A program made the translations under genes and the position numbers. Shown here in pieces: positions 44,244 to 54,484 of a DNA stretch of 64,000 nt (the stretch's first letter is position 1; the number at the start of each line of letters is the position of its first letter). Under the pieces are notes generated by a model. That model did not search any database and had not been told where the DNA came from. It worked only from the letters and a program-made list of their open reading frames with translations. The stretch is from NCBI RefSeq assembly GCF_003790525.1, contig NZ_CP033635.1; one strand, given 5' to 3'. The DNA is from Escherichia coli. Its GTDB lineage: Bacteria; Pseudomonadota; Gammaproteobacteria; Enterobacterales; Enterobacteriaceae.

Positions 44244-45437
44244 TCAAATCTGCCGTAACTGCGCCTCAACATACAAATAGCCAATTCCCAGCACCTGCTG
44301 TGCGCGGCTTAATTGCCCAAAGCCAATTTGCGTCGCTTTCACGCTCGGTCCTTCGTCGCGGTCGAACGGGTTAAATCCCGTCTGGCGAATAATGGTATTA
44401 AGCCAGTTCTCACCAAAGGCACAACTGCGACCGTACAACCAAATCTGATTAATATTGAGGATGTTGAGGAAGTTATACAGACTCAAACCAATGGCGTTGG
44501 CAGAGCGATCAACCCAACTGGTGATCCACGGTTCTCCACTCTGCCAGGCAGCGATTAACTGCGCGGTAGTCAGTTTTTCAGGATCAAGCTGAGTATTAAC
44601 CGGTTGTGATTTTAGCCATACCCGCGCCTGTTTTTTTAATGCGCTTAACGAGGCGACGGTTTCCAGGCAGCCGTAACGCCCGCAGTCGCAGACGACGCCA
44701 TCCGGATTAACGATGGTGTGACCAATTTGCCCGCTACCATACAAACTGCCGCGATAAATTTGCTCGTTAATCACGAACGACGAGCCAATGCCGTAATCAA
44801 CGTTGATCACGCAGAAATCCCGTTCCTGCGAATTATTTTGCCATTTCTCCGCCAGCGCCAGCATCACGCAGTCATTATCGACCATCACCCGAATGCCGAG
44901 CTTCTCTTCCAGCAGATACTTTACCTCAACCGGCGTTGTCCACGGCGCTTGCGGCATGGTTTGCGACACGCCAGTCACCGGATCAACCTGACCGTGGATT
45001 GCCAGCGCCAGGTTGATGGTACGGTCCGGCCACAATTTACGGTGGCGATGCCAGCATTTTTCGATTTCGGACAGCAGCGCCTGCGGCGTCGGTGCATCAA
45101 TCTGTAAATACTCAAATTCACCTTTCGGACTTAAACAGGCGTTAGCGACCTGACACTCAATACTGGTGGGCGTCACGTTCAGGCACAGCGTCCAGTCACC
45201 TTCCGGCGCAATCAGCCATGTACCGCTACTATGCCCGCGCGTCTGGCTTTCATCGTCGATATTTACCACCCGTTTTTCGCTTTCCAGTTCCTGCAAAATA
45301 TTACTGACTGCCGGAATCGAAATTTGCGCCAGCCGGGCCAGCGTTGATTTATTGGCGCGCTTTTGCCGGTACAGCAGTTCCAGAATCACGCATTTGTTAT
45401 GGTGGCGAATCTGTTGATTATTAATGCAGGCTCTCAT
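44244..45437 (-). CDS. yphH: ROK/NagC-family transcriptional regulator (uncharacterised)
   Basis: 397 aa from the ATG at 45437 (the ORF track uses a GTG two codons upstream); N-terminal HTH (KSTLARLAQISIPAVSNILQELE) plus ROK sugar-kinase-like domain with CxCGxxGC zinc motif (CDCGRYGCLE). Confidence 0.85.
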   Translation of the reverse strand: MRACINNQQIRHHNKCVILELLYRQKRANKSTLARLAQISIPAVSNILQELESEKRVVNIDDESQTRGHSSGTWLIAPEGDWTLCLNVTPTSIECQVANACLSPKGEFEYLQIDAPTPQALLSEIEKCWHRHRKLWPDRTINLALAIHGQVDPVTGVSQTMPQAPWTTPVEVKYLLEEKLGIRVMVDNDCVMLALAEKWQNNSQERDFCVINVDYGIGSSFVINEQIYRGSLYGSGQIGHTIVNPDGVVCDCGRYGCLETVASLSALKKQARVWLKSQPVNTQLDPEKLTTAQLIAAWQSGEPWITSWVDRSANAIGLSLYNFLNILNINQIWLYGRSCAFGENWLNTIIRQTGFNPFDRDEGPSVKATQIGFGQLSRAQQVLGIGYLYVEAQLRQI

Positions 45438-45554
45438 CTTCACTAAACCTTGTTTAGTTAATTGCGTGATTATTCCGCGAAAACATTGCCAGATTGTTCA
45501 ATACACTGCCACAAATCTTTTAATTCAGTATGTCTTGTTAATATTGAGGGCACC

Positions 45555-48500
45555 ATGACTCCAGTAAAAGTGTGGCAAGAGCGCGTTGAGATCCCGACCT
45601 ATGAAACCGGGCCGCAGGATATACATCCCATGTTCCTGGAAAATCGCGTTTATCAGGGATCGTCCGGCGCGGTTTATCCCTACGGCGTGACCGATACGCT
45701 GAGCGAGCAGAAAACCCTGAAATCCTGGCAGGCGGTGTGGCTGGAAAATGACTACATCAAAGTGATGATCCTGCCGGAACTGGGCGGTCGGGTGCATCGC
45801 GCATGGGATAAAGTGAAACAGCGCGATTTTGTCTATCACAATGAAGTCATTAAACCTGCGCTGGTGGGGCTGCTGGGACCGTGGATCTCCGGCGGGATTG
45901 AGTTTAACTGGCCGCAACACCATCGCCCGACCACCTTTATGCCCGTTGATTTCACCCTCGAAGCCCATGACGACGGCGCACAGACGGTGTGGGTCGGCGA
46001 AACGGAGCCGATGCACGGTTTACAGGTGATGACAGGTTTCACCCTGCGTCCTGACCGGGCGGCGCTGGAAATCGCCAGTCGCGTCTATAACGGCAACGCC
46101 ACGCCGCGTCATTTCTTGTGGTGGGCCAACCCGGCAGTGAAAGGGGGTGAAGGGCATCAGAGCGTCTTCCCGCCGGATGTAACGGCGGTGTTTGATCACG
46201 GCAAACGGGCCGTCTCCGCTTTCCCCATCGCCACCGGCACTTACTACAAAGTGGACTACTCCGCCGGAGTGGACATTTCTCGCTATAAAAATGTGCCCGT
46301 TCCAACCTCATATATGGCTGAAAAATCACAGTACGATTTTGTTGGCGCGTGGTGTCACGATGAAGATGGTGGTTTGCTACACGTTGCCAACCACCATATT
46401 GCGCCAGGTAAAAAACAGTGGAGCTGGGGACACAGTGAATTTGGCCAGGCGTGGGATAAGAGCCTGACTGACAATAACGGCCCGTATATCGAACTGATGA
46501 CCGGTATTTTTGCCGATAACCAGCCTGATTTTACCTGGCTTGATGCTTACGAGGAGAAGCGTTTCGAGCAGTATTTCCTGCCTTATCATTCTCTGGGCAT
46601 GGTGCAAAATGCCTCCCGCGATGCGGTGATAAAACTCCAGCGTAGTGAGCGGGGGATTGAGTGGGGGCTGTATGCCATCTCTCCGTTGAACGGATACCGC
46701 CTGGCGATCCGCGAAATCGGCAAATGCAACGCGTTGCTCGATGATGCCGTGGCCCTGACACCAGCGACCGCCATCCAGGGCGTGTTGCACGGTATCAATC
46801 CTGACAGACTGACCATTGAGCTCTCCGATGCCGACGGCAATATTGTACTGAGTTATCATGAACATCAGCCGCAAGCGTTGCCGTTGCCGGACGTCGCCAA
46901 AGCGCCACTGTCAGCACAAGACATTACCAGTACAGATGAAGCCTGGTTTATCGGTCAGCATCTGGAGCAATATCATCACGCCAGCCGTTCACCGTTCGAT
47001 TACTACCTGCGCGGCGTGGCGCTGGATCCGCTGGATTATCGCTGTAACCTGGCGCTGGCGATGCTGGAATATAACCGCGCCGATTTCCCGCAAGCGGTGG
47101 CGTATGCCACTCAGGCGCTGAAACGCGCACATGCGCTGAACAAAAATCCGCAGTGCGGACAGGCCAGTTTGATTCGCGCCAGTGCTTACGAACGTCAGGG
47201 ACAATATCAACAAGCCGAAGAGGATTTCTGGCGGGCGGTCTGGAGCGGCAATAGTAAAGCAGGTGGCTATTATGGTCTGGCACGACTGGCGGCGCGTAAT
47301 GGTCACTTCGATGCTGGTCTGGATTTTTGCCAACAAAGTCTTCGCGCCTGCCCAACCAATCAGGAAGTGCTTTGCCTGCATAATCTGCTGCTGGTGTTAA
47401 GTGGTCGTCAGGACAACGCGCGTTTGCAGCGCGAGAAACTGCTGCGCGATTATCCGCTGAACGCCACTCTGTGGTGGCTGAACTGGTTCGATGGTCGTAG
47501 CGAATCAGCCCTCGCGCAGTGGCGCGGTCTGTGTCAGGGACGCGACGTTAACGCCCTGATGACCGCCGGGCAACTGATTAACTGGGGAATGCCTACCCTG
47601 GCGGCAGAGATGCTGAACGCACTGGACTGCCAGCGCACGCTGCCGCTTTATCTGCAGGCGAGTTTATTGCCGAAAGCCGAACGCGGCGAACTGGTCGCAA
47701 AAGCCATTGATGTCTTCCCGCAGTTTGTCCGTTTCCCGAATACGCTGGAAGAAGTGGCGGCGCTGGAGAGTATTGAAGAGTGCTGGTTTGCCCGTCATTT
47801 ATTGGCCTGCTTCTACTACAACAAGCGTAGCTACGGCAAAGCCATTGCCTTATGGCAACGTTGCGTAGAGATGTCGCCGGAGTTTGCCGACGGCTGGCGC
47901 GGGTTAGCGATCCATGCGTGGAATAAGCAACACGATTATGAGCTGGCCGCGCGTTATCTTGATAATGCTTATCAGCTTGCGCCGCAGGATGCACGTCTGC
48001 TTTTCGAACGGGATTTGCTGGATAAGTTAAGTGGAGCCACACCGGAGAAACGACTGGCGCGTCTGGAAAATAATCTGGAAATTGCGCTGAAACGCGACGA
48101 CATGACCGCAGAACTGCTCAATTTGTGGCATCTCACGGGTCAGGCAGACAAAGCGGCGGACATTCTCGCCACGCGCAAATTCCACCCGTGGGAAGGCGGG
48201 GAAGGGAAGATCACCAGTCAGTTTATCCTCAACCAGTTATTACGCGCCTGGCAGCATCTTGATGCCAGAGAGCCGCAGCAGGCCAGCGAACTGCTTCATG
48301 CCGCGCTGCATTATCCGGAGAATTTAAGCGAAGGCCGTTTACCGGGGCAAACTGATAACGACATCTGGTTCTGGCAGGCGATATGCGCCAACGCGCAGGG
48401 AGATGAAACTGAAGCGATGCGTTGTTTACGTCTGGCGGCGACTGGCGATCGCACCATTAACATTCACAGTTATTACAACGATCAGCCGGTTGATTATCTC

Positions 48501-48836
48501 TTCTGGCAAGGAATGGCGCTGCGACTGCTGGGCGAACAACAAATCGCACAGCAACTGTTTAGTGAAATGAAACAGTGGGCGCAAGAGATGGCGAAAACCA
48601 GTATTGAGGCGGATTTCTTTGCTGTTTCACAACCTGACCTGTTGTCGCTGTATGGCGATTTACAACAGCAGCATAAAGAAAAATGCCTGATGGTGGCGAT
48701 GCTGGCGTCCGCGGGACTCGGGGAGGTTGCGCACTATGAATCTGCTCGCGCTGAATTGACGGCGATTAATCCGGCCTGGCCGAAAGCGGCATTATTCACC
48801 ACTGTGATGCCTTTTATTTTTAACTACGTTCACTAA
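45555..48836 (+). CDS. yphG: large uncharacterised protein, N-terminal DUF5107-type domain plus C-terminal TPR-like repeats
   Basis: 1093 aa from MTPVKVWQERVEIPTYETGPQD... (ATG at 45555 preceded by GAGGG); C-terminal half shows repeated helical TPR-like motifs; no signal peptide. ORF-track ORF extends 31 codons further upstream. Confidence 0.85.
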   Translation: MTPVKVWQERVEIPTYETGPQDIHPMFLENRVYQGSSGAVYPYGVTDTLSEQKTLKSWQAVWLENDYIKVMILPELGGRVHRAWDKVKQRDFVYHNEVIKPALVGLLGPWISGGIEFNWPQHHRPTTFMPVDFTLEAHDDGAQTVWVGETEPMHGLQVMTGFTLRPDRAALEIASRVYNGNATPRHFLWWANPAVKGGEGHQSVFPPDVTAVFDHGKRAVSAFPIATGTYYKVDYSAGVDISRYKNVPVPTSYMAEKSQYDFVGAWCHDEDGGLLHVANHHIAPGKKQWSWGHSEFGQAWDKSLTDNNGPYIELMTGIFADNQPDFTWLDAYEEKRFEQYFLPYHSLGMVQNASRDAVIKLQRSERGIEWGLYAISPLNGYRLAIREIGKCNALLDDAVALTPATAIQGVLHGINPDRLTIELSDADGNIVLSYHEHQPQALPLPDVAKAPLSAQDITSTDEAWFIGQHLEQYHHASRSPFDYYLRGVALDPLDYRCNLALAMLEYNRADFPQAVAYATQALKRAHALNKNPQCGQASLIRASAYERQGQYQQAEEDFWRAVWSGNSKAGGYYGLARLAARNGHFDAGLDFCQQSLRACPTNQEVLCLHNLLLVLSGRQDNARLQREKLLRDYPLNATLWWLNWFDGRSESALAQWRGLCQGRDVNALMTAGQLINWGMPTLAAEMLNALDCQRTLPLYLQASLLPKAERGELVAKAIDVFPQFVRFPNTLEEVAALESIEECWFARHLLACFYYNKRSYGKAIALWQRCVEMSPEFADGWRGLAIHAWNKQHDYELAARYLDNAYQLAPQDARLLFERDLLDKLSGATPEKRLARLENNLEIALKRDDMTAELLNLWHLTGQADKAADILATRKFHPWEGGEGKITSQFILNQLLRAWQHLDAREPQQASELLHAALHYPENLSEGRLPGQTDNDIWFWQAICANAQGDETEAMRCLRLAATGDRTINIHSYYNDQPVDYLFWQGMALRLLGEQQIAQQLFSEMKQWAQEMAKTSIEADFFAVSQPDLLSLYGDLQQQHKEKCLMVAMLASAGLGEVAHYESARAELTAINPAWPKAALFTTVMPFIFNYVH

Positions 48837-48932
48837 ACCCTATTAACTGTAATATTTGAGCGGCACGCGCTGCCGCTCACGCTCAAATAATTAAAATAAG
48901 CCGTTGTAAATAAAAACCCTACAGGAGGCACT

Positions 48933-49916
48933 ATGCCTAAAAAAATGAGAACAACCCGTAATCTATTATTAATGGCTACGCTATTAGGTAGCGCACTATT
49001 TGCCAGGGCTGCGGATAAAGAAATGACCATTGGCGCAATATACCTTGATACCCAGGGATATTACGCTGGCGTGCGTCAGGGTGTTCAGGATGCGGCAAAA
49101 GATTCTTCAGTACAGGTACAGTTAATTGAAACTAACGCCCAGGGTGATATTTCGAAAGAAAGTACCTTTGTTGATACCCTCGTGGCGCGTAATGTCGATG
49201 CCATTATTTTATCGGCAGTGTCTGAAAATGGCAGTAGCCGTACCGTTCGTCGCGCCAGTGAAGCGGGTATTCCGGTGATTTGCTACAACACCTGTATTAA
49301 TCAAAAAGGCGTCGATAAATATGTCTCGGCGTATCTGGTCGGCGATCCGCTGGAATTTGGTAAAAAACTGGGTAATGCTGCCGCCGATTATTTTATTGCC
49401 AACAAAATTGACCAGCCGAAAATTGCCGTCATCAATTGCGAAGCCTTTGAAGTTTGTGTGCAGCGACGTAAAGGGTTTGAAGAAGTATTAAAAGCCCGCG
49501 TTCCCGGCGCGCAAATTGTCGCTAATCAGGAAGGGACTGTTTTAGATAAAGCGATTTCCGTTGGTGAAAAACTAATTATCTCCAGGCCGGATCTCAACGC
49601 CATTATGGGTGAATCGGGCGGAGCGACACTCGGCGCGGTAAAAGCGGTACGTAATCAAAATCAGGCCGGAAAAATTGCTGTTTTCGGTTCGGATATGACC
49701 ACTGAAATTGCTCAGGAGCTGGAAAACAATCAGGTGCTGAAAGCGGTAGTGGATATTTCCGGCAAGAAAATGGGCAATGCTGTTTTCGCGCAAACATTGA
49801 AGGTTATCAATAAACAAGCCGACGGTGAAAAAGTGATTCAGGTGCCTATCGATCTCTATACCAAAACGGAAGACGGTAAACAGTGGCTGGCAACGCACGT
49901 TGATGGTCTGCCCTAA
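48933..49916 (+). CDS. yphF: ABC transporter periplasmic sugar-binding protein (uncharacterised)
   Basis: 327-aa ORF with signal peptide (MPKKMRTTRNLLLMATLLGSALFARA); periplasmic-binding-protein type I fold typical of monosaccharide ABC systems. Confidence 0.88.
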   Translation: MPKKMRTTRNLLLMATLLGSALFARAADKEMTIGAIYLDTQGYYAGVRQGVQDAAKDSSVQVQLIETNAQGDISKESTFVDTLVARNVDAIILSAVSENGSSRTVRRASEAGIPVICYNTCINQKGVDKYVSAYLVGDPLEFGKKLGNAAADYFIANKIDQPKIAVINCEAFEVCVQRRKGFEEVLKARVPGAQIVANQEGTVLDKAISVGEKLIISRPDLNAIMGESGGATLGAVKAVRNQNQAGKIAVFGSDMTTEIAQELENNQVLKAVVDISGKKMGNAVFAQTLKVINKQADGEKVIQVPIDLYTKTEDGKQWLATHVDGLP

Positions 49917-49938: not shown

Positions 49939-51450
49939 ATGTTCACGGCAACAGAGGCAGTCCCGGTAGCAAAAGTGGTGGCAGGAAATAAGCGTTATCC
50001 CGGCGTCGTTGCGTTGGATAACGTTAACTTCACGCTCAATAAAGGCGAAGTTCGTGCGCTGTTAGGCAAAAACGGCGCGGGCAAATCGACCCTCATTCGA
50101 ATGCTTACCGGTAGCGAACGTCCGGATAGCGGTGATATCTGGATTGGCGAGACGCGACTGGAAGGTGACGAAACTACGCTGACTCGCCGTGCCGCTGAAC
50201 TGGGGGTTCGTGCGGTTTATCAGGAATTAAGTCTGGTGGAAGGGCTGACGGTGGCGGAAAACCTCTGCCTCGGTCAGTGGCCCCGCCGCAACGGCATGAT
50301 TGATTACCTGCAAATGGCGCAGGATGCCCAACGTTGCTTACAGGCGCTGGGCGTTGACGTTAGCCCTGAACAACTTGTTTCAACGCTAAGCCCGGCGCAA
50401 AAGCAACTGGTGGAAATTGCGCGGGTGATGAAGGGCGAGCCGCGCGTGGTCATTCTTGATGAACCCACCAGCTCGCTTGCCAGTGCGGAAGTTGAACTGG
50501 TGATCAGCGCGGTGAAAAAGATGTCGGCACTGGGCGTGGCGGTGATTTATGTCAGCCACCGGATGGAAGAAATTCGCCGCATTGCCTCCTGTGCCACCGT
50601 TATGCGCGATGGTCAGGTGGCGGGCGATGTGATGCTCGAAAACACCTCTACGCATCATATTGTGTCGCTAATGCTCGGGTGCGATCACGTTGATATTGCG
50701 CCGGTTGCCCCTCAGGAAATTATGGATCAGGCCGTGCTGGAAGTCCGTGCGTTACGCCATAAGCCCAAGCTGGAGGATATCAGCTTTACGCTACGTCGCG
50801 GCGAAGTGCTCGGCATTGCTGGCCTGCTGGGGGCAGGGCGCAGTGAATTGTTGAAAGCCATAGTTGGGCTGGAGACGTATGAACAGGGCGAAATTGTTAT
50901 CAACGGCGAGAAAATCACGTGCCCCGATTACGGCGACATGCTGAAACGCGGCATTGGATATACGCCAGAAAACCGCAAAGAAGCGGGGATCATTCCCTGG
51001 CTGGGCGTTGACGAAAATACAGTGCTGACCAATCGGCAAAAAATCAGCGCCAACGGTGTGCTGCAATGGTCCACCATCCGCCGCCTGACCGAAGAGGTGA
51101 TGCAGCGGATGACGGTCAAGGCCGCCAGTAGCGAAACGCCCATCGGCACGCTTTCTGGCGGCAATCAGCAAAAAGTGGTGATCGGTCGTTGGGTCTATGC
51201 CGCCAGCCAGATTTTGTTGCTCGACGAGCCAACGCGTGGCGTCGATATCGAAGCCAAACAGCAGATTTACCGTATTGTCCGCGAGCTGGCTGCCGAAGGA
51301 AAAAGCGTGGTGTTTATCTCCAGTGAAGTGGAGGAGTTACCGTTGGTGTGCGACCGCATTCTGTTGTTACAGCACGGTACGTTCTCGCAGGAGTTTCACT
51401 CTCCGGTCAATGTGGATGAGCTGATGTCCGCCATTCTGTCTGTGCACTGA
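49939..51450 (+). CDS. yphE: ABC transporter ATP-binding protein, tandem ATPase domains (uncharacterised)
   Basis: 503-aa ORF with two Walker A motifs (GKNGAGKST; GLLGAGRSEL) and two signature motifs (LSPAQKQL; LSGGNQQK), as in ribose/xylose-type importers. Confidence 0.9.
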   Translation: MFTATEAVPVAKVVAGNKRYPGVVALDNVNFTLNKGEVRALLGKNGAGKSTLIRMLTGSERPDSGDIWIGETRLEGDETTLTRRAAELGVRAVYQELSLVEGLTVAENLCLGQWPRRNGMIDYLQMAQDAQRCLQALGVDVSPEQLVSTLSPAQKQLVEIARVMKGEPRVVILDEPTSSLASAEVELVISAVKKMSALGVAVIYVSHRMEEIRRIASCATVMRDGQVAGDVMLENTSTHHIVSLMLGCDHVDIAPVAPQEIMDQAVLEVRALRHKPKLEDISFTLRRGEVLGIAGLLGAGRSELLKAIVGLETYEQGEIVINGEKITCPDYGDMLKRGIGYTPENRKEAGIIPWLGVDENTVLTNRQKISANGVLQWSTIRRLTEEVMQRMTVKAASSETPIGTLSGGNQQKVVIGRWVYAASQILLLDEPTRGVDIEAKQQIYRIVRELAAEGKSVVFISSEVEELPLVCDRILLLQHGTFSQEFHSPVNVDELMSAILSVH

Positions 51451-51474: not shown

Positions 51475-52473
51475 ATGTCTGCTTCGTCATTACCATTGCC
51501 GCAGGGCAAGAGCGTCTCGCTCAAACAATTTGTCAGTCGCCATATTAATGAGATCGGTTTGCTGGTGGTGATTGCCATTTTGTATCTGGTCTTCTCCCTG
51601 AACGCGCCGGGTTTTATCTCATTGAATAACCAGATGAACGTGCTGCGTGATGCCGCCACCATTGGGATCGCCGCCTGGGCGATGACGCTGATTATTATCT
51701 CCGGTGAAATTGATGTCAGCGTTGGGCCGATGGTGGCTTTTGTCTCGGTGTGCCTGGCATTTTTGCTGCAATTTGACGTTCCGCTGGCGATTGCTTGTCT
51801 GCTGGTGTTGCTGTTAGGTGCGCTGATGGGAACGCTCGCCGGGGTGCTGCGCGGCGTGTTTAACGTGCCAAGTTTTGTTGCCACGCTGGGTTTATGGAGC
51901 GCCCTGCGCGGAATGGGGCTGTTTATGACGAACGCCTTGCCAGTGCCAATTAACGAAAACGAAGTGCTGGACTGGCTGGGCGGACAATTTCTCGGTGTGC
52001 CGGTATCCGCGCTGATCATGATGGTGTTATTTGCGCTGTTTGTGTTCATTAGCCGCAAAACCGCCTTCGGGCGCTCGGTTTTTGCTGTTGGCGGTAATGC
52101 CACTGCAGCGCAGTTGTGCGGTATTAACGTTCGTCGGGTACGCATTCTTATTTTTACCCTTTCGGGATTATTAGCGGCGGTGACCGGCATTTTGTTGGCG
52201 GCGCGCCTCGGTTCCGGTAACGCAGGTGCCGCAAACGGTCTGGAGTTTGACGTCATCGCCGCGGTCGTCGTCGGCGGTACGGCGCTTTCCGGTGGTCGCG
52301 GCTCGTTGTTCGGTACGCTGCTTGGCGTACTGGTGATTACGCTAATCGGTAACGGTCTGGTGCTGCTCGGGATTAACTCCTTTTTCCAGCAGGTGGTGCG
52401 CGGCGTCATCATCGTGGTGGCGGTGCTGGCGAATATCTTGCTGACCCAGCGTAGCAGTAAAGCGAAACGCTAA
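51475..52473 (+). CDS. yphD: ABC transporter permease (uncharacterised)
   Basis: 332-aa polytopic membrane protein of the RbsC/AraH permease family. Confidence 0.9.
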   Translation: MSASSLPLPQGKSVSLKQFVSRHINEIGLLVVIAILYLVFSLNAPGFISLNNQMNVLRDAATIGIAAWAMTLIIISGEIDVSVGPMVAFVSVCLAFLLQFDVPLAIACLLVLLLGALMGTLAGVLRGVFNVPSFVATLGLWSALRGMGLFMTNALPVPINENEVLDWLGGQFLGVPVSALIMMVLFALFVFISRKTAFGRSVFAVGGNATAAQLCGINVRRVRILIFTLSGLLAAVTGILLAARLGSGNAGAANGLEFDVIAAVVVGGTALSGGRGSLFGTLLGVLVITLIGNGLVLLGINSFFQQVVRGVIIVVAVLANILLTQRSSKAKR

Positions 52474-52538
52474 ACCTTAACGCCCCTGGCGCGGGTGCGG
52501 CAGGGATGAAAATTAATCGTATTGTTAATGAGGGATTT

Positions 52539-53600
52539 ATGAAAACGATGCTGGCAGCTTATTTACCAGGAAATTCGACCGTCGATCTGCGGGAAGTTGC
52601 GGTGCCGACGCCGGGTATTAACCAGGTACTGATCAAAATGAAATCCTCCGGAATTTGCGGAAGCGATGTCCACTATATCTACCACCAGCACCGCGCTACG
52701 GCGGCGGCACCCGATAAACCGTTATACCAGGGATTTATCAACGGTCATGAACCGTGCGGGCAAATTGTGGCGATGGGGCAAGGCTGCCGCCATTTTAAAG
52801 AGGGCGACCGTGTGCTGGTGTATCACATTTCTGGCTGTGGTTTTTGCCCGAACTGCCGTCGTGGTTTTCCTATCTCTTGTACTGGCGAAGGAAAAGCGGC
52901 TTACGGCTGGCAGCGTGACGGCGGCCATGCTGAATACCTGCTGGCGGAAGAAAAAGATCTGATCCTCCTGCCGGATGCACTGAGTTACGAAGATGGTGCG
53001 TTTATCAGTTGCGGCGTTGGTACAGCGTATGAAGGGATTTTGCGCGGCGAAGTTTCCGGCAGTGATAACGTGCTGGTGGTCGGTCTGGGGCCGGTCGGCA
53101 TGATGGCGATGATGCTGGCAAAAGGTCGCGGTGCAAAAAGGATCATCGGCGTTGATATGTTGCCGGAACGTCTGGCGATGGCGAAACAGTTAGGAGTGAT
53201 GGATCACGGCTATTTAGCGACTACCGAAGGTCTGCCGCAGATAATCGCCGAACTCACTCACGGCGGCGCGGATGTTGCGCTTGATTGTTCCGGTAATGCC
53301 GCAGGTCGCTTACTGGCACTGCAATCCACCGCTGACTGGGGACGGGTGGTTTACATCGGGGAAACCGGAAAAGTGGAGTTCGAGGTTAGCGCTGATCTGA
53401 TGCATCATCAACGGCGGATTATTGGCTCCTGGGTGACCAGTCTGTTCCATATGGAAAAATGCGCCCACGATTTAACGGACTGGAAACTGTGGCCGCGTAA
53501 TGCCATTACCCATCGCTTCTCACTGGAACAGGCAGGAGATGCCTATGCGCTGATGGCGAGCGGCAAATGCGGGAAAGTTGTGATTAACTTCCCGGATTAA
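52539..53600 (+). CDS. yphC: zinc-dependent alcohol/polyol dehydrogenase (uncharacterised)
   Basis: 353 aa from MKTMLAAYLPGNSTVDLREV...; catalytic zinc motif GHEPCGQIVAMG, structural zinc cysteines (CGFCPNCRRG), Rossmann GLGPVG. Confidence 0.88.
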   Translation: MKTMLAAYLPGNSTVDLREVAVPTPGINQVLIKMKSSGICGSDVHYIYHQHRATAAAPDKPLYQGFINGHEPCGQIVAMGQGCRHFKEGDRVLVYHISGCGFCPNCRRGFPISCTGEGKAAYGWQRDGGHAEYLLAEEKDLILLPDALSYEDGAFISCGVGTAYEGILRGEVSGSDNVLVVGLGPVGMMAMMLAKGRGAKRIIGVDMLPERLAMAKQLGVMDHGYLATTEGLPQIIAELTHGGADVALDCSGNAAGRLLALQSTADWGRVVYIGETGKVEFEVSADLMHHQRRIIGSWVTSLFHMEKCAHDLTDWKLWPRNAITHRFSLEQAGDAYALMASGKCGKVVINFPD

Positions 53601-53611
53601 GGAGTTAGCGG

Positions 53612-54484
53612 ATGACCATCTATACCTTATCTCACGGGCCGCTAAAGCTGGACGTTTCTGACCGGGGCGGCGTCATCGAAGGCTTCTGGCGTGACGCGAC
53701 GCCGCTCTTACGTCCCGGTAAAAAAAGCGGTGTGGCAACCGATGCCTCTTGTTTTCCGCTGGTGCCGTTTGCAAACCGGGTGAGCGGCAATCGTTTTGTC
53801 TGGCAGGGGCGTGAGTATCAACTGCAACCGAATGTTGAGTGGGATGCGCATTATCTACACGGCGATGGCTGGTTGGGCGAGTGGCAATGTGTCTCGCGCA
53901 GCGATGATAGCTTGTGTCTGGTGTATGAACATCTCAGCGGTGTTTATCACTATCGGGTAAGCCAGGCATTTCATTTAACGGCGGATACGCTGACAGTGAC
54001 GCTCGCTGTCACCAATCAAGGGGCAGAGACGCTGCCATTTGGTACCGGCTGGCATCCTTATTTTCCGTTGTCGCCGCAAACGCGGATTCAGGCACAGGCG
54101 AGCGGTTACTGGCTGGAGCGGGAGCAGTGGCTGGCGGGTGAGTTTTGCGAGCAGCTACCGCAGGAACTGGATTTTAACCAGCTCACGCCGTTGCCGCGCC
54201 AGTGGGTAAACAATGGTTTTGCCGGATGGAATGGTAAGGCCCGCATCGAGCAGCCGCAGGAGGGTTATGCCATCATCATGGAAACGACGCGGCCTGCACC
54301 GTGTTATTTCATCTTTGTTTCCGACCCGGCGTTTGATAAAGGATATGCGTTTGATTTCTTCTGTCTGGAACCGATGAGCCATGCGCCAGATGATCATCAT
54401 CGCCCGGAAGGTGGTGATCTCATTGCGCTTGCACCAGGGGAATCAACAACTTCAGAGATGTCGTTGCGGGTTGCGTTACTGTAA
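53612..54484 (+). CDS. yphB: aldose 1-epimerase (mutarotase)-like protein (uncharacterised)
   Basis: 290-aa ORF; mutarotase-family features (…NQGAETLPFGTGWHPYFPL…, C-terminal FCLEPMS). Confidence 0.85.
   Translation: MTIYTLSHGPLKLDVSDRGGVIEGFWRDATPLLRPGKKSGVATDASCFPLVPFANRVSGNRFVWQGREYQLQPNVEWDAHYLHGDGWLGEWQCVSRSDDSLCLVYEHLSGVYHYRVSQAFHLTADTLTVTLAVTNQGAETLPFGTGWHPYFPLSPQTRIQAQASGYWLEREQWLAGEFCEQLPQELDFNQLTPLPRQWVNNGFAGWNGKARIEQPQEGYAIIMETTRPAPCYFIFVSDPAFDKGYAFDFFCLEPMSHAPDDHHRPEGGDLIALAPGESTTSEMSLRVALL

Follow-up and report, generated by a model that had tools for sequence, protein, structure and literature searches.

Introduction

The aldose 1-epimerases, or galactose mutarotases, form a family (PF01263) that includes GalM, YphB and YeaD. 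In GalM, H175 is the catalytic acid, which protonates the ring oxygen, and E309 is the catalytic base. In Escherichia coli, the gene for YphB shares an operon with yphG, the subject of this study, which we analyzed within a chromosomal window of 64,000 nucleotides (the whole stretch examined, to which all positions refer unless stated otherwise) from contig NZ_CP033635.1 of RefSeq assembly GCF_003790525.1. YphG, with 1093 residues, is among the largest E. coli proteins without an assigned function, and its gene is present in nearly every complete genome of the species (5422 of 5426). We show that residues 1-345 of this protein are a diverged aldose-1-epimerase domain in which the catalytic base glutamate is kept and the acid histidine is replaced by asparagine.

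The yphG gene and the domains of its product, DUF5107 and TPR, are already catalogued, and RefSeq labels the protein a "DUF5107 domain-containing protein". The product of the divergent gene, YphH, has been described as the third ROK repressor of E. coli and called uncharacterised (PMC4288165). YphF was found up in a levoglucosan-versus-fructose proteome, alongside XylF, MalE, MglA and YtfQ (PMC8753852); because several sugar transporters rose together, we read this induction as general carbon-source derepression and not as a levoglucosan-specific response. Besides these notes, the mentions of yph genes that we found are PCR-marker and expression-list entries only, and full-text literature searches on yphG, DUF5107, 5cd6/BDI_1685 and the yph operon returned no functional study.

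Here, we describe a structural and comparative-genomic analysis of YphG. New in this work are the profile homology to mutarotases, the retained glutamate and replaced histidine, a C-terminal half composed of TPR helices only, the ancient architecture of the protein, and its genetic linkage to sugar importers.

Results

The N-terminal domain of YphG has a galactose-mutarotase fold

An earlier reading of this DNA, made from the letters alone (the original prediction), had divided YphG into one N-terminal domain of about 500 residues, of unknown function, and a C-terminal half with TPR-like repeats. The N-terminal part is really two domains, a DUF5107 domain of about 345 residues and a poorly conserved beta-sandwich of about 100 residues (Table 1). 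The former already carries a Pfam name and has a solved homologue (PDB 5cd6), and its function is indeed undescribed in the literature that we found. Pfam DUF5107 (PF17128) matches residues 39-324 with 188.2 bits (cut-off 24.4; E = 2e-55), and sequence-level searches of the N-terminal domain for any domain beyond DUF5107 gave nothing at E<=10. When full-length YphG was modelled with AlphaFold2 on a shallow 27-sequence alignment, the TPR half was predicted confidently, and conserved segments of the N-terminal domain had a predicted local distance difference test score (pLDDT) below 50. A re-run of residues 1-480 with 66 diverse homologues yielded an all-beta domain with a pLDDT of 93.6, whose fold is the galactose-mutarotase supersandwich and whose best structural matches are mutarotases. 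The relationship is also detected at the level of sequence profiles: hhalign matched the N-terminal domain family to YphB-type epimerases with 93% probability (E = 3e-7) over 246 columns, covering residues 59-340.

The catalytic base of the mutarotases has a counterpart in YphG: E313 aligns with E309 in a GalM-anchored alignment and with the glutamate of the CLEPM motif in a YphB-anchored one. YphB itself keeps the canonical His, His and Glu residues, in the motifs LHGDGW, GWHPYF and CLEPM. In YphG, the position of the acid histidine in the second of these motifs is occupied by N192. The counterpart of GalM H104 is placed less precisely: H123 aligns with it in the weak GalM-anchored alignment, and the YphB-anchored alignment places the corresponding YphB histidine in a gap, 5-6 residues beyond H123. 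Two further residues, H215 and D240, are located in an insertion that is absent from YphB. Among 118 homologues, E313 and N192 never vary, and conservation of H123 and H215 is at least 90%; all four residues are invariant in the 66-sequence diverse set and are also present in the distant homologue 5cd6. The residues that the YphG domain has gained as family-specific invariants are H215, N179, W110, K100 and E116, and the most conserved block of the protein, residues 98-125, falls on the mutarotase substrate loop in the alignment.

These observations bear directly on the simplest reading of the protein, that YphG is a second, oversized aldose 1-epimerase for the imported sugar. Its best structural matches are mutarotases, it is homologous to YphB and it has the catalytic glutamate, all as this reading would have it, but an asparagine invariantly takes the place of GalM H175, and the Pfam model of the family does not match. 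Additionally, 21 of 80 loci, that of E. coli among them, also encode a canonical mutarotase (YphB or GalM-like), which would make YphG redundant, and some 750 added residues would be left unexplained. We therefore regard a simple mutarotase activity as very improbable. Because one canonical residue has been exchanged, the chemistry of YphG cannot be assigned from that of the mutarotases. Judged by its residues, YphG is a mutarotase homologue whose site has been remodelled, and catalytically it would fall outside the family.

The C-terminal half is a TPR superhelix, and the N-terminal domain is the most constrained part

The TPR-like repeats of the original prediction are borne out by four Pfam families that pass their gathering cut-offs (given in parentheses) within residues 483-820: TPR_16 with 59 bits (32.7), TPR_14 with 44 (23.5), TPR_2 with 39.8 (27) and TPR_1 with 35.1 (27.8). 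The peptide that had been cited as TPR-like lies at residues 482-529. In the model, residues 451-1093 form a superhelix of helical hairpins whose structural matches are to TPR superhelices only, with no enzyme fold among them. Conserved loops of this half are HPWEGGEG (residues 877-884), NLSEGRL (923-929), YYNDQP (973-978) and DFFA (1020-1023).

Conservation along YphG is highest in the N-terminal domain, intermediate in the TPR half and lowest in residues 361-440. In comparison with E. albertii, the ratio of nonsynonymous to synonymous substitutions (dN/dS) is 0.011 for the N-terminal domain and 0.081 for the TPR half, and every part of the protein evolves under purifying selection. The description of YphG as giant and scaffold-like therefore gives half the picture: the TPR superhelix agrees with it, but the most constrained part of the protein is the N-terminal domain.

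YphG could instead be non-catalytic, with the mutarotase-like domain acting as a sugar sensor and the TPR scaffold linking the importer or a regulator (YphH or an AraC protein) to the availability of sugar. The base glutamate and about 25 other N-terminal residues are, however, invariant at 35% overall identity, with the dN/dS of 0.011 given above, a constraint that exceeds the usual needs of a binding module and so disfavors this role. The partner regulators of the AraC and ROK families are unrelated and have ligand domains of their own, and exported members of the family cannot touch cytoplasmic regulators. In view of these points we consider a sensor or scaffold function quite unlikely.

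The two-part architecture is old and widespread

An exhaustive HMMER search with residues 1-480 as query recovered 3930 clusters at 50% identity, of which 888 have E<=1e-30. Among the matches listed, most relatives are 1050-1150 residues long, down to about 35% identity, and the architecture of about 1100 residues occurs across Proteobacteria, Bacteroidota and Firmicutes. The combination of the N-terminal domain with a long helical half is therefore old and fixed. Full-length relatives of about 40% identity in species-representative genomes come from Enterobacterales, Photobacterium, Bacteroidota (Mucilaginibacter, Sphingobacterium, Prevotella, Parabacteroides, Muribaculaceae and marine Flavobacteriia) and Firmicutes (Lachnospiraceae, Ruminococcaceae and Paenibacillus); Aeromonas relatives turned up in the protein search.

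One relative, P0247, is a DUF5107-TPR protein with a signal peptide, encoded between a GH16 gene and two sulfatase genes in a Bacteroidota SusC/D locus (L084 / L085, 8001-11303). The same locus holds Pel9A-like beta-helix proteins and an extracytoplasmic function (ECF) sigma/anti-sigma pair. P0247 looks like a member of an exported branch of the family, and its locus, by its sulfatases, like one for a sulfated glycan.

YphG homologues are linked to monosaccharide-type importers

To survey genomic context, open reading frames (ORFs) were called in 80 YphG loci and clustered, recurrent clusters were annotated, and neighbors were counted within 6 kb. A XylE-like sugar porter of the major facilitator superfamily (MFS) is found near the YphG homologue in 42 loci and directly adjacent to it in 30. 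A ribose-type ATP-binding cassette (ABC) system is found in 15. One or other importer is present in 54 loci (both in 3) and adjacent in 33; where at least 3 kb is available on both flanks, the count is 44 of 60. Regulators of the AraC family occur in 43 of the 80 loci and of the ROK family in 11, and one or the other in 53. Galactosidase-type glycoside hydrolases (BT4151-like GH2, GH35, GH36, GH97 and GH30) lie near the homologue in 39 loci, GalM-, YphB- or DUF4432-like epimerases in 21, GDSL esterases in 8 and sulfatases in 7.

The original prediction had placed yphG directly upstream of an ABC importer, and in E. coli the yphF, yphE and yphD importer genes do follow it after a gap of 96 nt. 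As a hallmark of the family, however, co-occurrence with yphFED was rejected: orthologous yphF, yphE, yphD and yphC stand beside yphG in only 4 of the 80 loci (L002-L005; Escherichia and its near relatives Enterobacter sp. BIGb0383 and Budvicia). The linkage is lineage-specific, and what is kept elsewhere is some importer of the monosaccharide type. A role for YphG as a lactonase working with an aldose dehydrogenase of the YphC type was likewise set aside as weak, a Zn-dependent dehydrogenase being found in 8 loci and never adjacent.

A YphH-like gene adjoins the YphG homologue in 9 Enterobacterales loci. Outside the group that bears yphFED, the Enterobacterales arrangement consists of a YphH-like ROK regulator, YphG, a XylE-like MFS porter and a YphB-like epimerase. 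Citrobacter, Hafnia and Enterobacter Ag1 have these four genes but lack the ABC and dehydrogenase genes. In Enterobacter sp. BIGb0383 (L004, 18982-20397) and Budvicia (L005, 19326-20771), a XylE-like MFS gene follows yphGFEDCB; E. coli lacks it. From these arrangements, the ABC-plus-dehydrogenase block seems to have been inserted into an older YphG-MFS-epimerase unit.

In Bacteroidota loci, the neighboring glycoside hydrolases have signal peptides and YphG and GalM do not; YphG should therefore receive an import product of monosaccharide size. The GH2 and GH35 neighbors in Firmicutes loci are cytoplasmic. Directly downstream of the YphG homologue, three Firmicutes loci (L018, 4013-4426; L061, 5233-5646; L063, 4070-4534) encode a ureidoglycolate lyase-like protein of 137-154 residues. 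Marine Flavobacteriia (L019, L029, L031, L032, L052, L055 and L056) have a fixed block of MFS porter, GDSL esterase, GH2-like enzyme and YphG, with sulfatases and usually a GH30-type enzyme upstream, and in most cases more sulfatases and a second GH2-like enzyme downstream; L055 has no sulfatase within the stretch covered.

The yphG gene and its surroundings

The yphG sequence of the window is 100% identical to the one annotated in E. coli SMS-3-5 and to those in further strains. Its start is the ATG at 45555, with GAGGG just 5' of it. A TTG start at 45462, given by the ORF finder (1124 residues; extra 45462-45554), was rejected as a mechanical extension that overlaps the conserved intergenic region and has no homologue support. 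Read directly from the sequence, the N-terminus (MTPVKVWQERVEIPTYETGPQD...) shows no hydrophobic signal segment, in agreement with the original description of a cytoplasmic protein of about 1100 residues without a signal peptide. A search against PADLOC defence-protein models found 0 families at E<=0.01, and a defence-system role was discarded. In E. coli strain SCPM-O-B-8794 (L002, 2379-5657), the frame is broken into ORFs of 841 and 244 residues, which suggests a frameshift or stop in the strain, or an assembly error.

A promoter scan of the yphG region gave no sigma-70 consensus match. The inverted repeat TTCACTAAAC/GTTTAGTTAA and the adjacent TGCGTGA (block 45439-45470) are kept in 8 Enterobacterales, and the conserved block is found also in Enterobacterales whose yphG precedes no ABC genes. 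The repeat is a candidate operator for YphH. The gap between yphG and yphF contains a hairpin (UUUGAGCGGCA...UGCCGCUCA...CAAA, 48853-48889) with a minimum free energy of -22.5 kcal/mol (z = -2.1) and no U-tract. It is no canonical terminator, and could serve to stabilise or process the transcript inside the operon. The yphA gene, which encodes a DoxX protein, lies on the strand opposite to the yphG operon.

Table 1. Features of the yphG locus in the window
Feature	Position	Strand	Basis or detail
yphH, ROK-family regulator, divergent from yphG	44244..45437	-	Pfam ROK plus helix-turn-helix; annotation
Inverted repeat, yphH-yphG intergenic region	45439..45461	.	10-nt repeat, beside yphH start codon
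yphG coding sequence	45555..48836	+	ORF and translation; 3282-nt frame, 1093 residues plus stop; stop 48834-48836
N-terminal domain, DUF5107, galactose-mutarotase-like supersandwich	45555..46589	+	Residues 1-345
His123 codon, candidate counterpart of GalM His104	45921..45923	+	Motif WPQHHRP; profile alignment; conserved in homologues
Asn192 codon, position of canonical acid His (GalM His175)	46128..46130	+	Motif WWANPAV; aligned to His of YphB GWHPYF
His215 codon, family-specific His	46197..46199	+	In insertion without YphB counterpart
Glu313 codon, counterpart of mutarotase catalytic base	46491..46493	+	Motif YIELM; aligned to GalM Glu309 and YphB CLEPM
Second small beta-sandwich, least conserved part	46590..46904	+	Residues 346-450; strands 357-435 in model; mean column identity about 0.3
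TPR superhelix, about 30 helices	46905..48833	+	Residues 451-1093
yphF, periplasmic sugar-binding protein, ribose/allose type	48933..49916	+	Pfam Peripla_BP_4; annotation
yphE, fused double ABC ATPase	49939..51450	+	Pfam; annotation
yphD, ABC permease (BPD_transp_2)	51475..52473	+	Pfam; annotation
yphC, Zn-dependent medium-chain dehydrogenase	52506..53600	+	Pfam; annotation
yphB, canonical aldose 1-epimerase family protein	53612..54484	+	Pfam Aldose_epim, E 5e-52; solved as 3nre

Discussion

The fold, the altered active site and the importer linkage of YphG suggest, at somewhat less than an even chance, that it is a cytoplasmic sugar-processing enzyme whose remodelled mutarotase pocket works at the anomeric end of an importer-supplied, galactose-type sugar. 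The N-terminal domain would bind a pyranose delivered by the adjacent importer, YphFED in E. coli and a XylE-like MFS porter in most other bacteria. This sugar would most likely be of the galactose type and no larger than a monosaccharide or a very small glycoside. The reaction would take place at or beside the anomeric carbon and differ from plain mutarotation; it could, for instance, open the ring and isomerise the sugar, or break a small aglycone, anhydro or lactone bond. YphB, the canonical mutarotase, would then anomerise the aldose so produced, and in E. coli the dehydrogenase YphC would act on it. The TPR half may cap the active site or serve oligomerisation or partner binding, and YphH would repress the yph operon. 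The original suggestion of a cryptic carbohydrate-active enzyme gains from the mutarotase fold and the sugar-importer context, but with the canonical acid histidine replaced, the chemistry is not thereby given.

Several points weigh against this proposal. The GalM-anchored hhalign comparison of the N-terminal domain is insignificant (probability 0.3%), and Pfam Aldose_epim (PF01263) gives no match to YphG even at E<=10. The canonical acid histidine is missing, its place being taken by N192 in the YphB-anchored alignment or by Q202 in the weaker GalM-anchored one, and these residue equivalences come from profile alignments, not from structural superposition. The substrate class is derived from gene neighbors only, 16 of the 60 loci that extend 3 kb or more to each side have no recognised importer, and the literature searches yielded no functional paper on YphG. 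Finally, signal peptides occur in a more distant subfamily of 35-38% identity, one member of which is encoded between GH16 and sulfatases, and this fits an oligosaccharide-active enzyme better.

Such an enzyme would be a novel glycoside hydrolase or glycan-active enzyme, whose pocket holds the -1 sugar and in which E313 together with a second conserved carboxylate (D240, D306 or E116) cleaves the glycosidic bond of galacto-oligosaccharides or other oligosaccharides, whether imported or periplasmic, or of galactosyl-glycerol. The partner importers, however, belong to classes of the monosaccharide type (sugar-porter MFS and ribose-type ABC), and the periplasmic exo-glycosidases of Bacteroidota would be expected to supply monosaccharides already. 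No glycoside hydrolase model of Pfam matches YphG and no catalytic carboxylate pair was found, and we judge this explanation to be unlikely.

The YphG family is widespread in gut Bacteroidota, Firmicutes and marine Flavobacteriia, usually near a sugar importer and galactosidases. The problem is now narrowed to a mutarotase-derived site with H123, N192, H215 and E313, and to a likely substrate class of galactose-type monosaccharides or small glycosides; its solution would help to complete both the picture of E. coli carbon metabolism and the annotation of polysaccharide-utilisation loci. A wider possibility, which we consider less likely than not, is that the DUF5107-TPR proteins are a large family of mutarotase-derived enzymes that form, with a dedicated importer, a two-gene module feeding a single compound, common and derived from galactose, into central metabolism. 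This family, about 3900 clusters at 50% identity in bacteria and some eukaryotes, may then carry out chemistry new to the fold. The compound may be a sugar lactone, a form with a furanose or anhydro ring, or a small galactoside such as the galactosyl-glycerol of plant galactolipids. With this, the core E. coli operon yphH-yphGFEDCB and a gene that recurs in gut and marine polysaccharide-utilisation loci would gain a function.

YphG differs from the described aldose 1-epimerases by the invariant asparagine at the position of GalM H175 and by the insertions that carry H215 and D240. It differs further by its fused beta-sandwich and 640-residue TPR superhelix and by its occurrence beside a canonical mutarotase. 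The solved homologue 5cd6 (BDI_1685 of Parabacteroides distasonis), a structural-genomics "TPR-domain containing protein" for which our literature search found no citing paper, is 575-580 residues long, about half the length of YphG, with which it shares 24% identity, and its TPR part is short. The DUF4432 / KPN_04629-type putative epimerases (PDB 3ty1) are single-domain proteins of about 380 residues without TPR and are themselves uncharacterised. The glycoside hydrolases and phosphorylases of families GH15, GH65 and GH94 resemble YphG in joining an N-terminal mutarotase-like domain to a helical domain, which in those enzymes is the catalytic one. Measured against these systems, our result is a structural and comparative-genomic annotation rather than a new mechanism: YphG is a divergent variant of a known superfamily in an operon of a known type.

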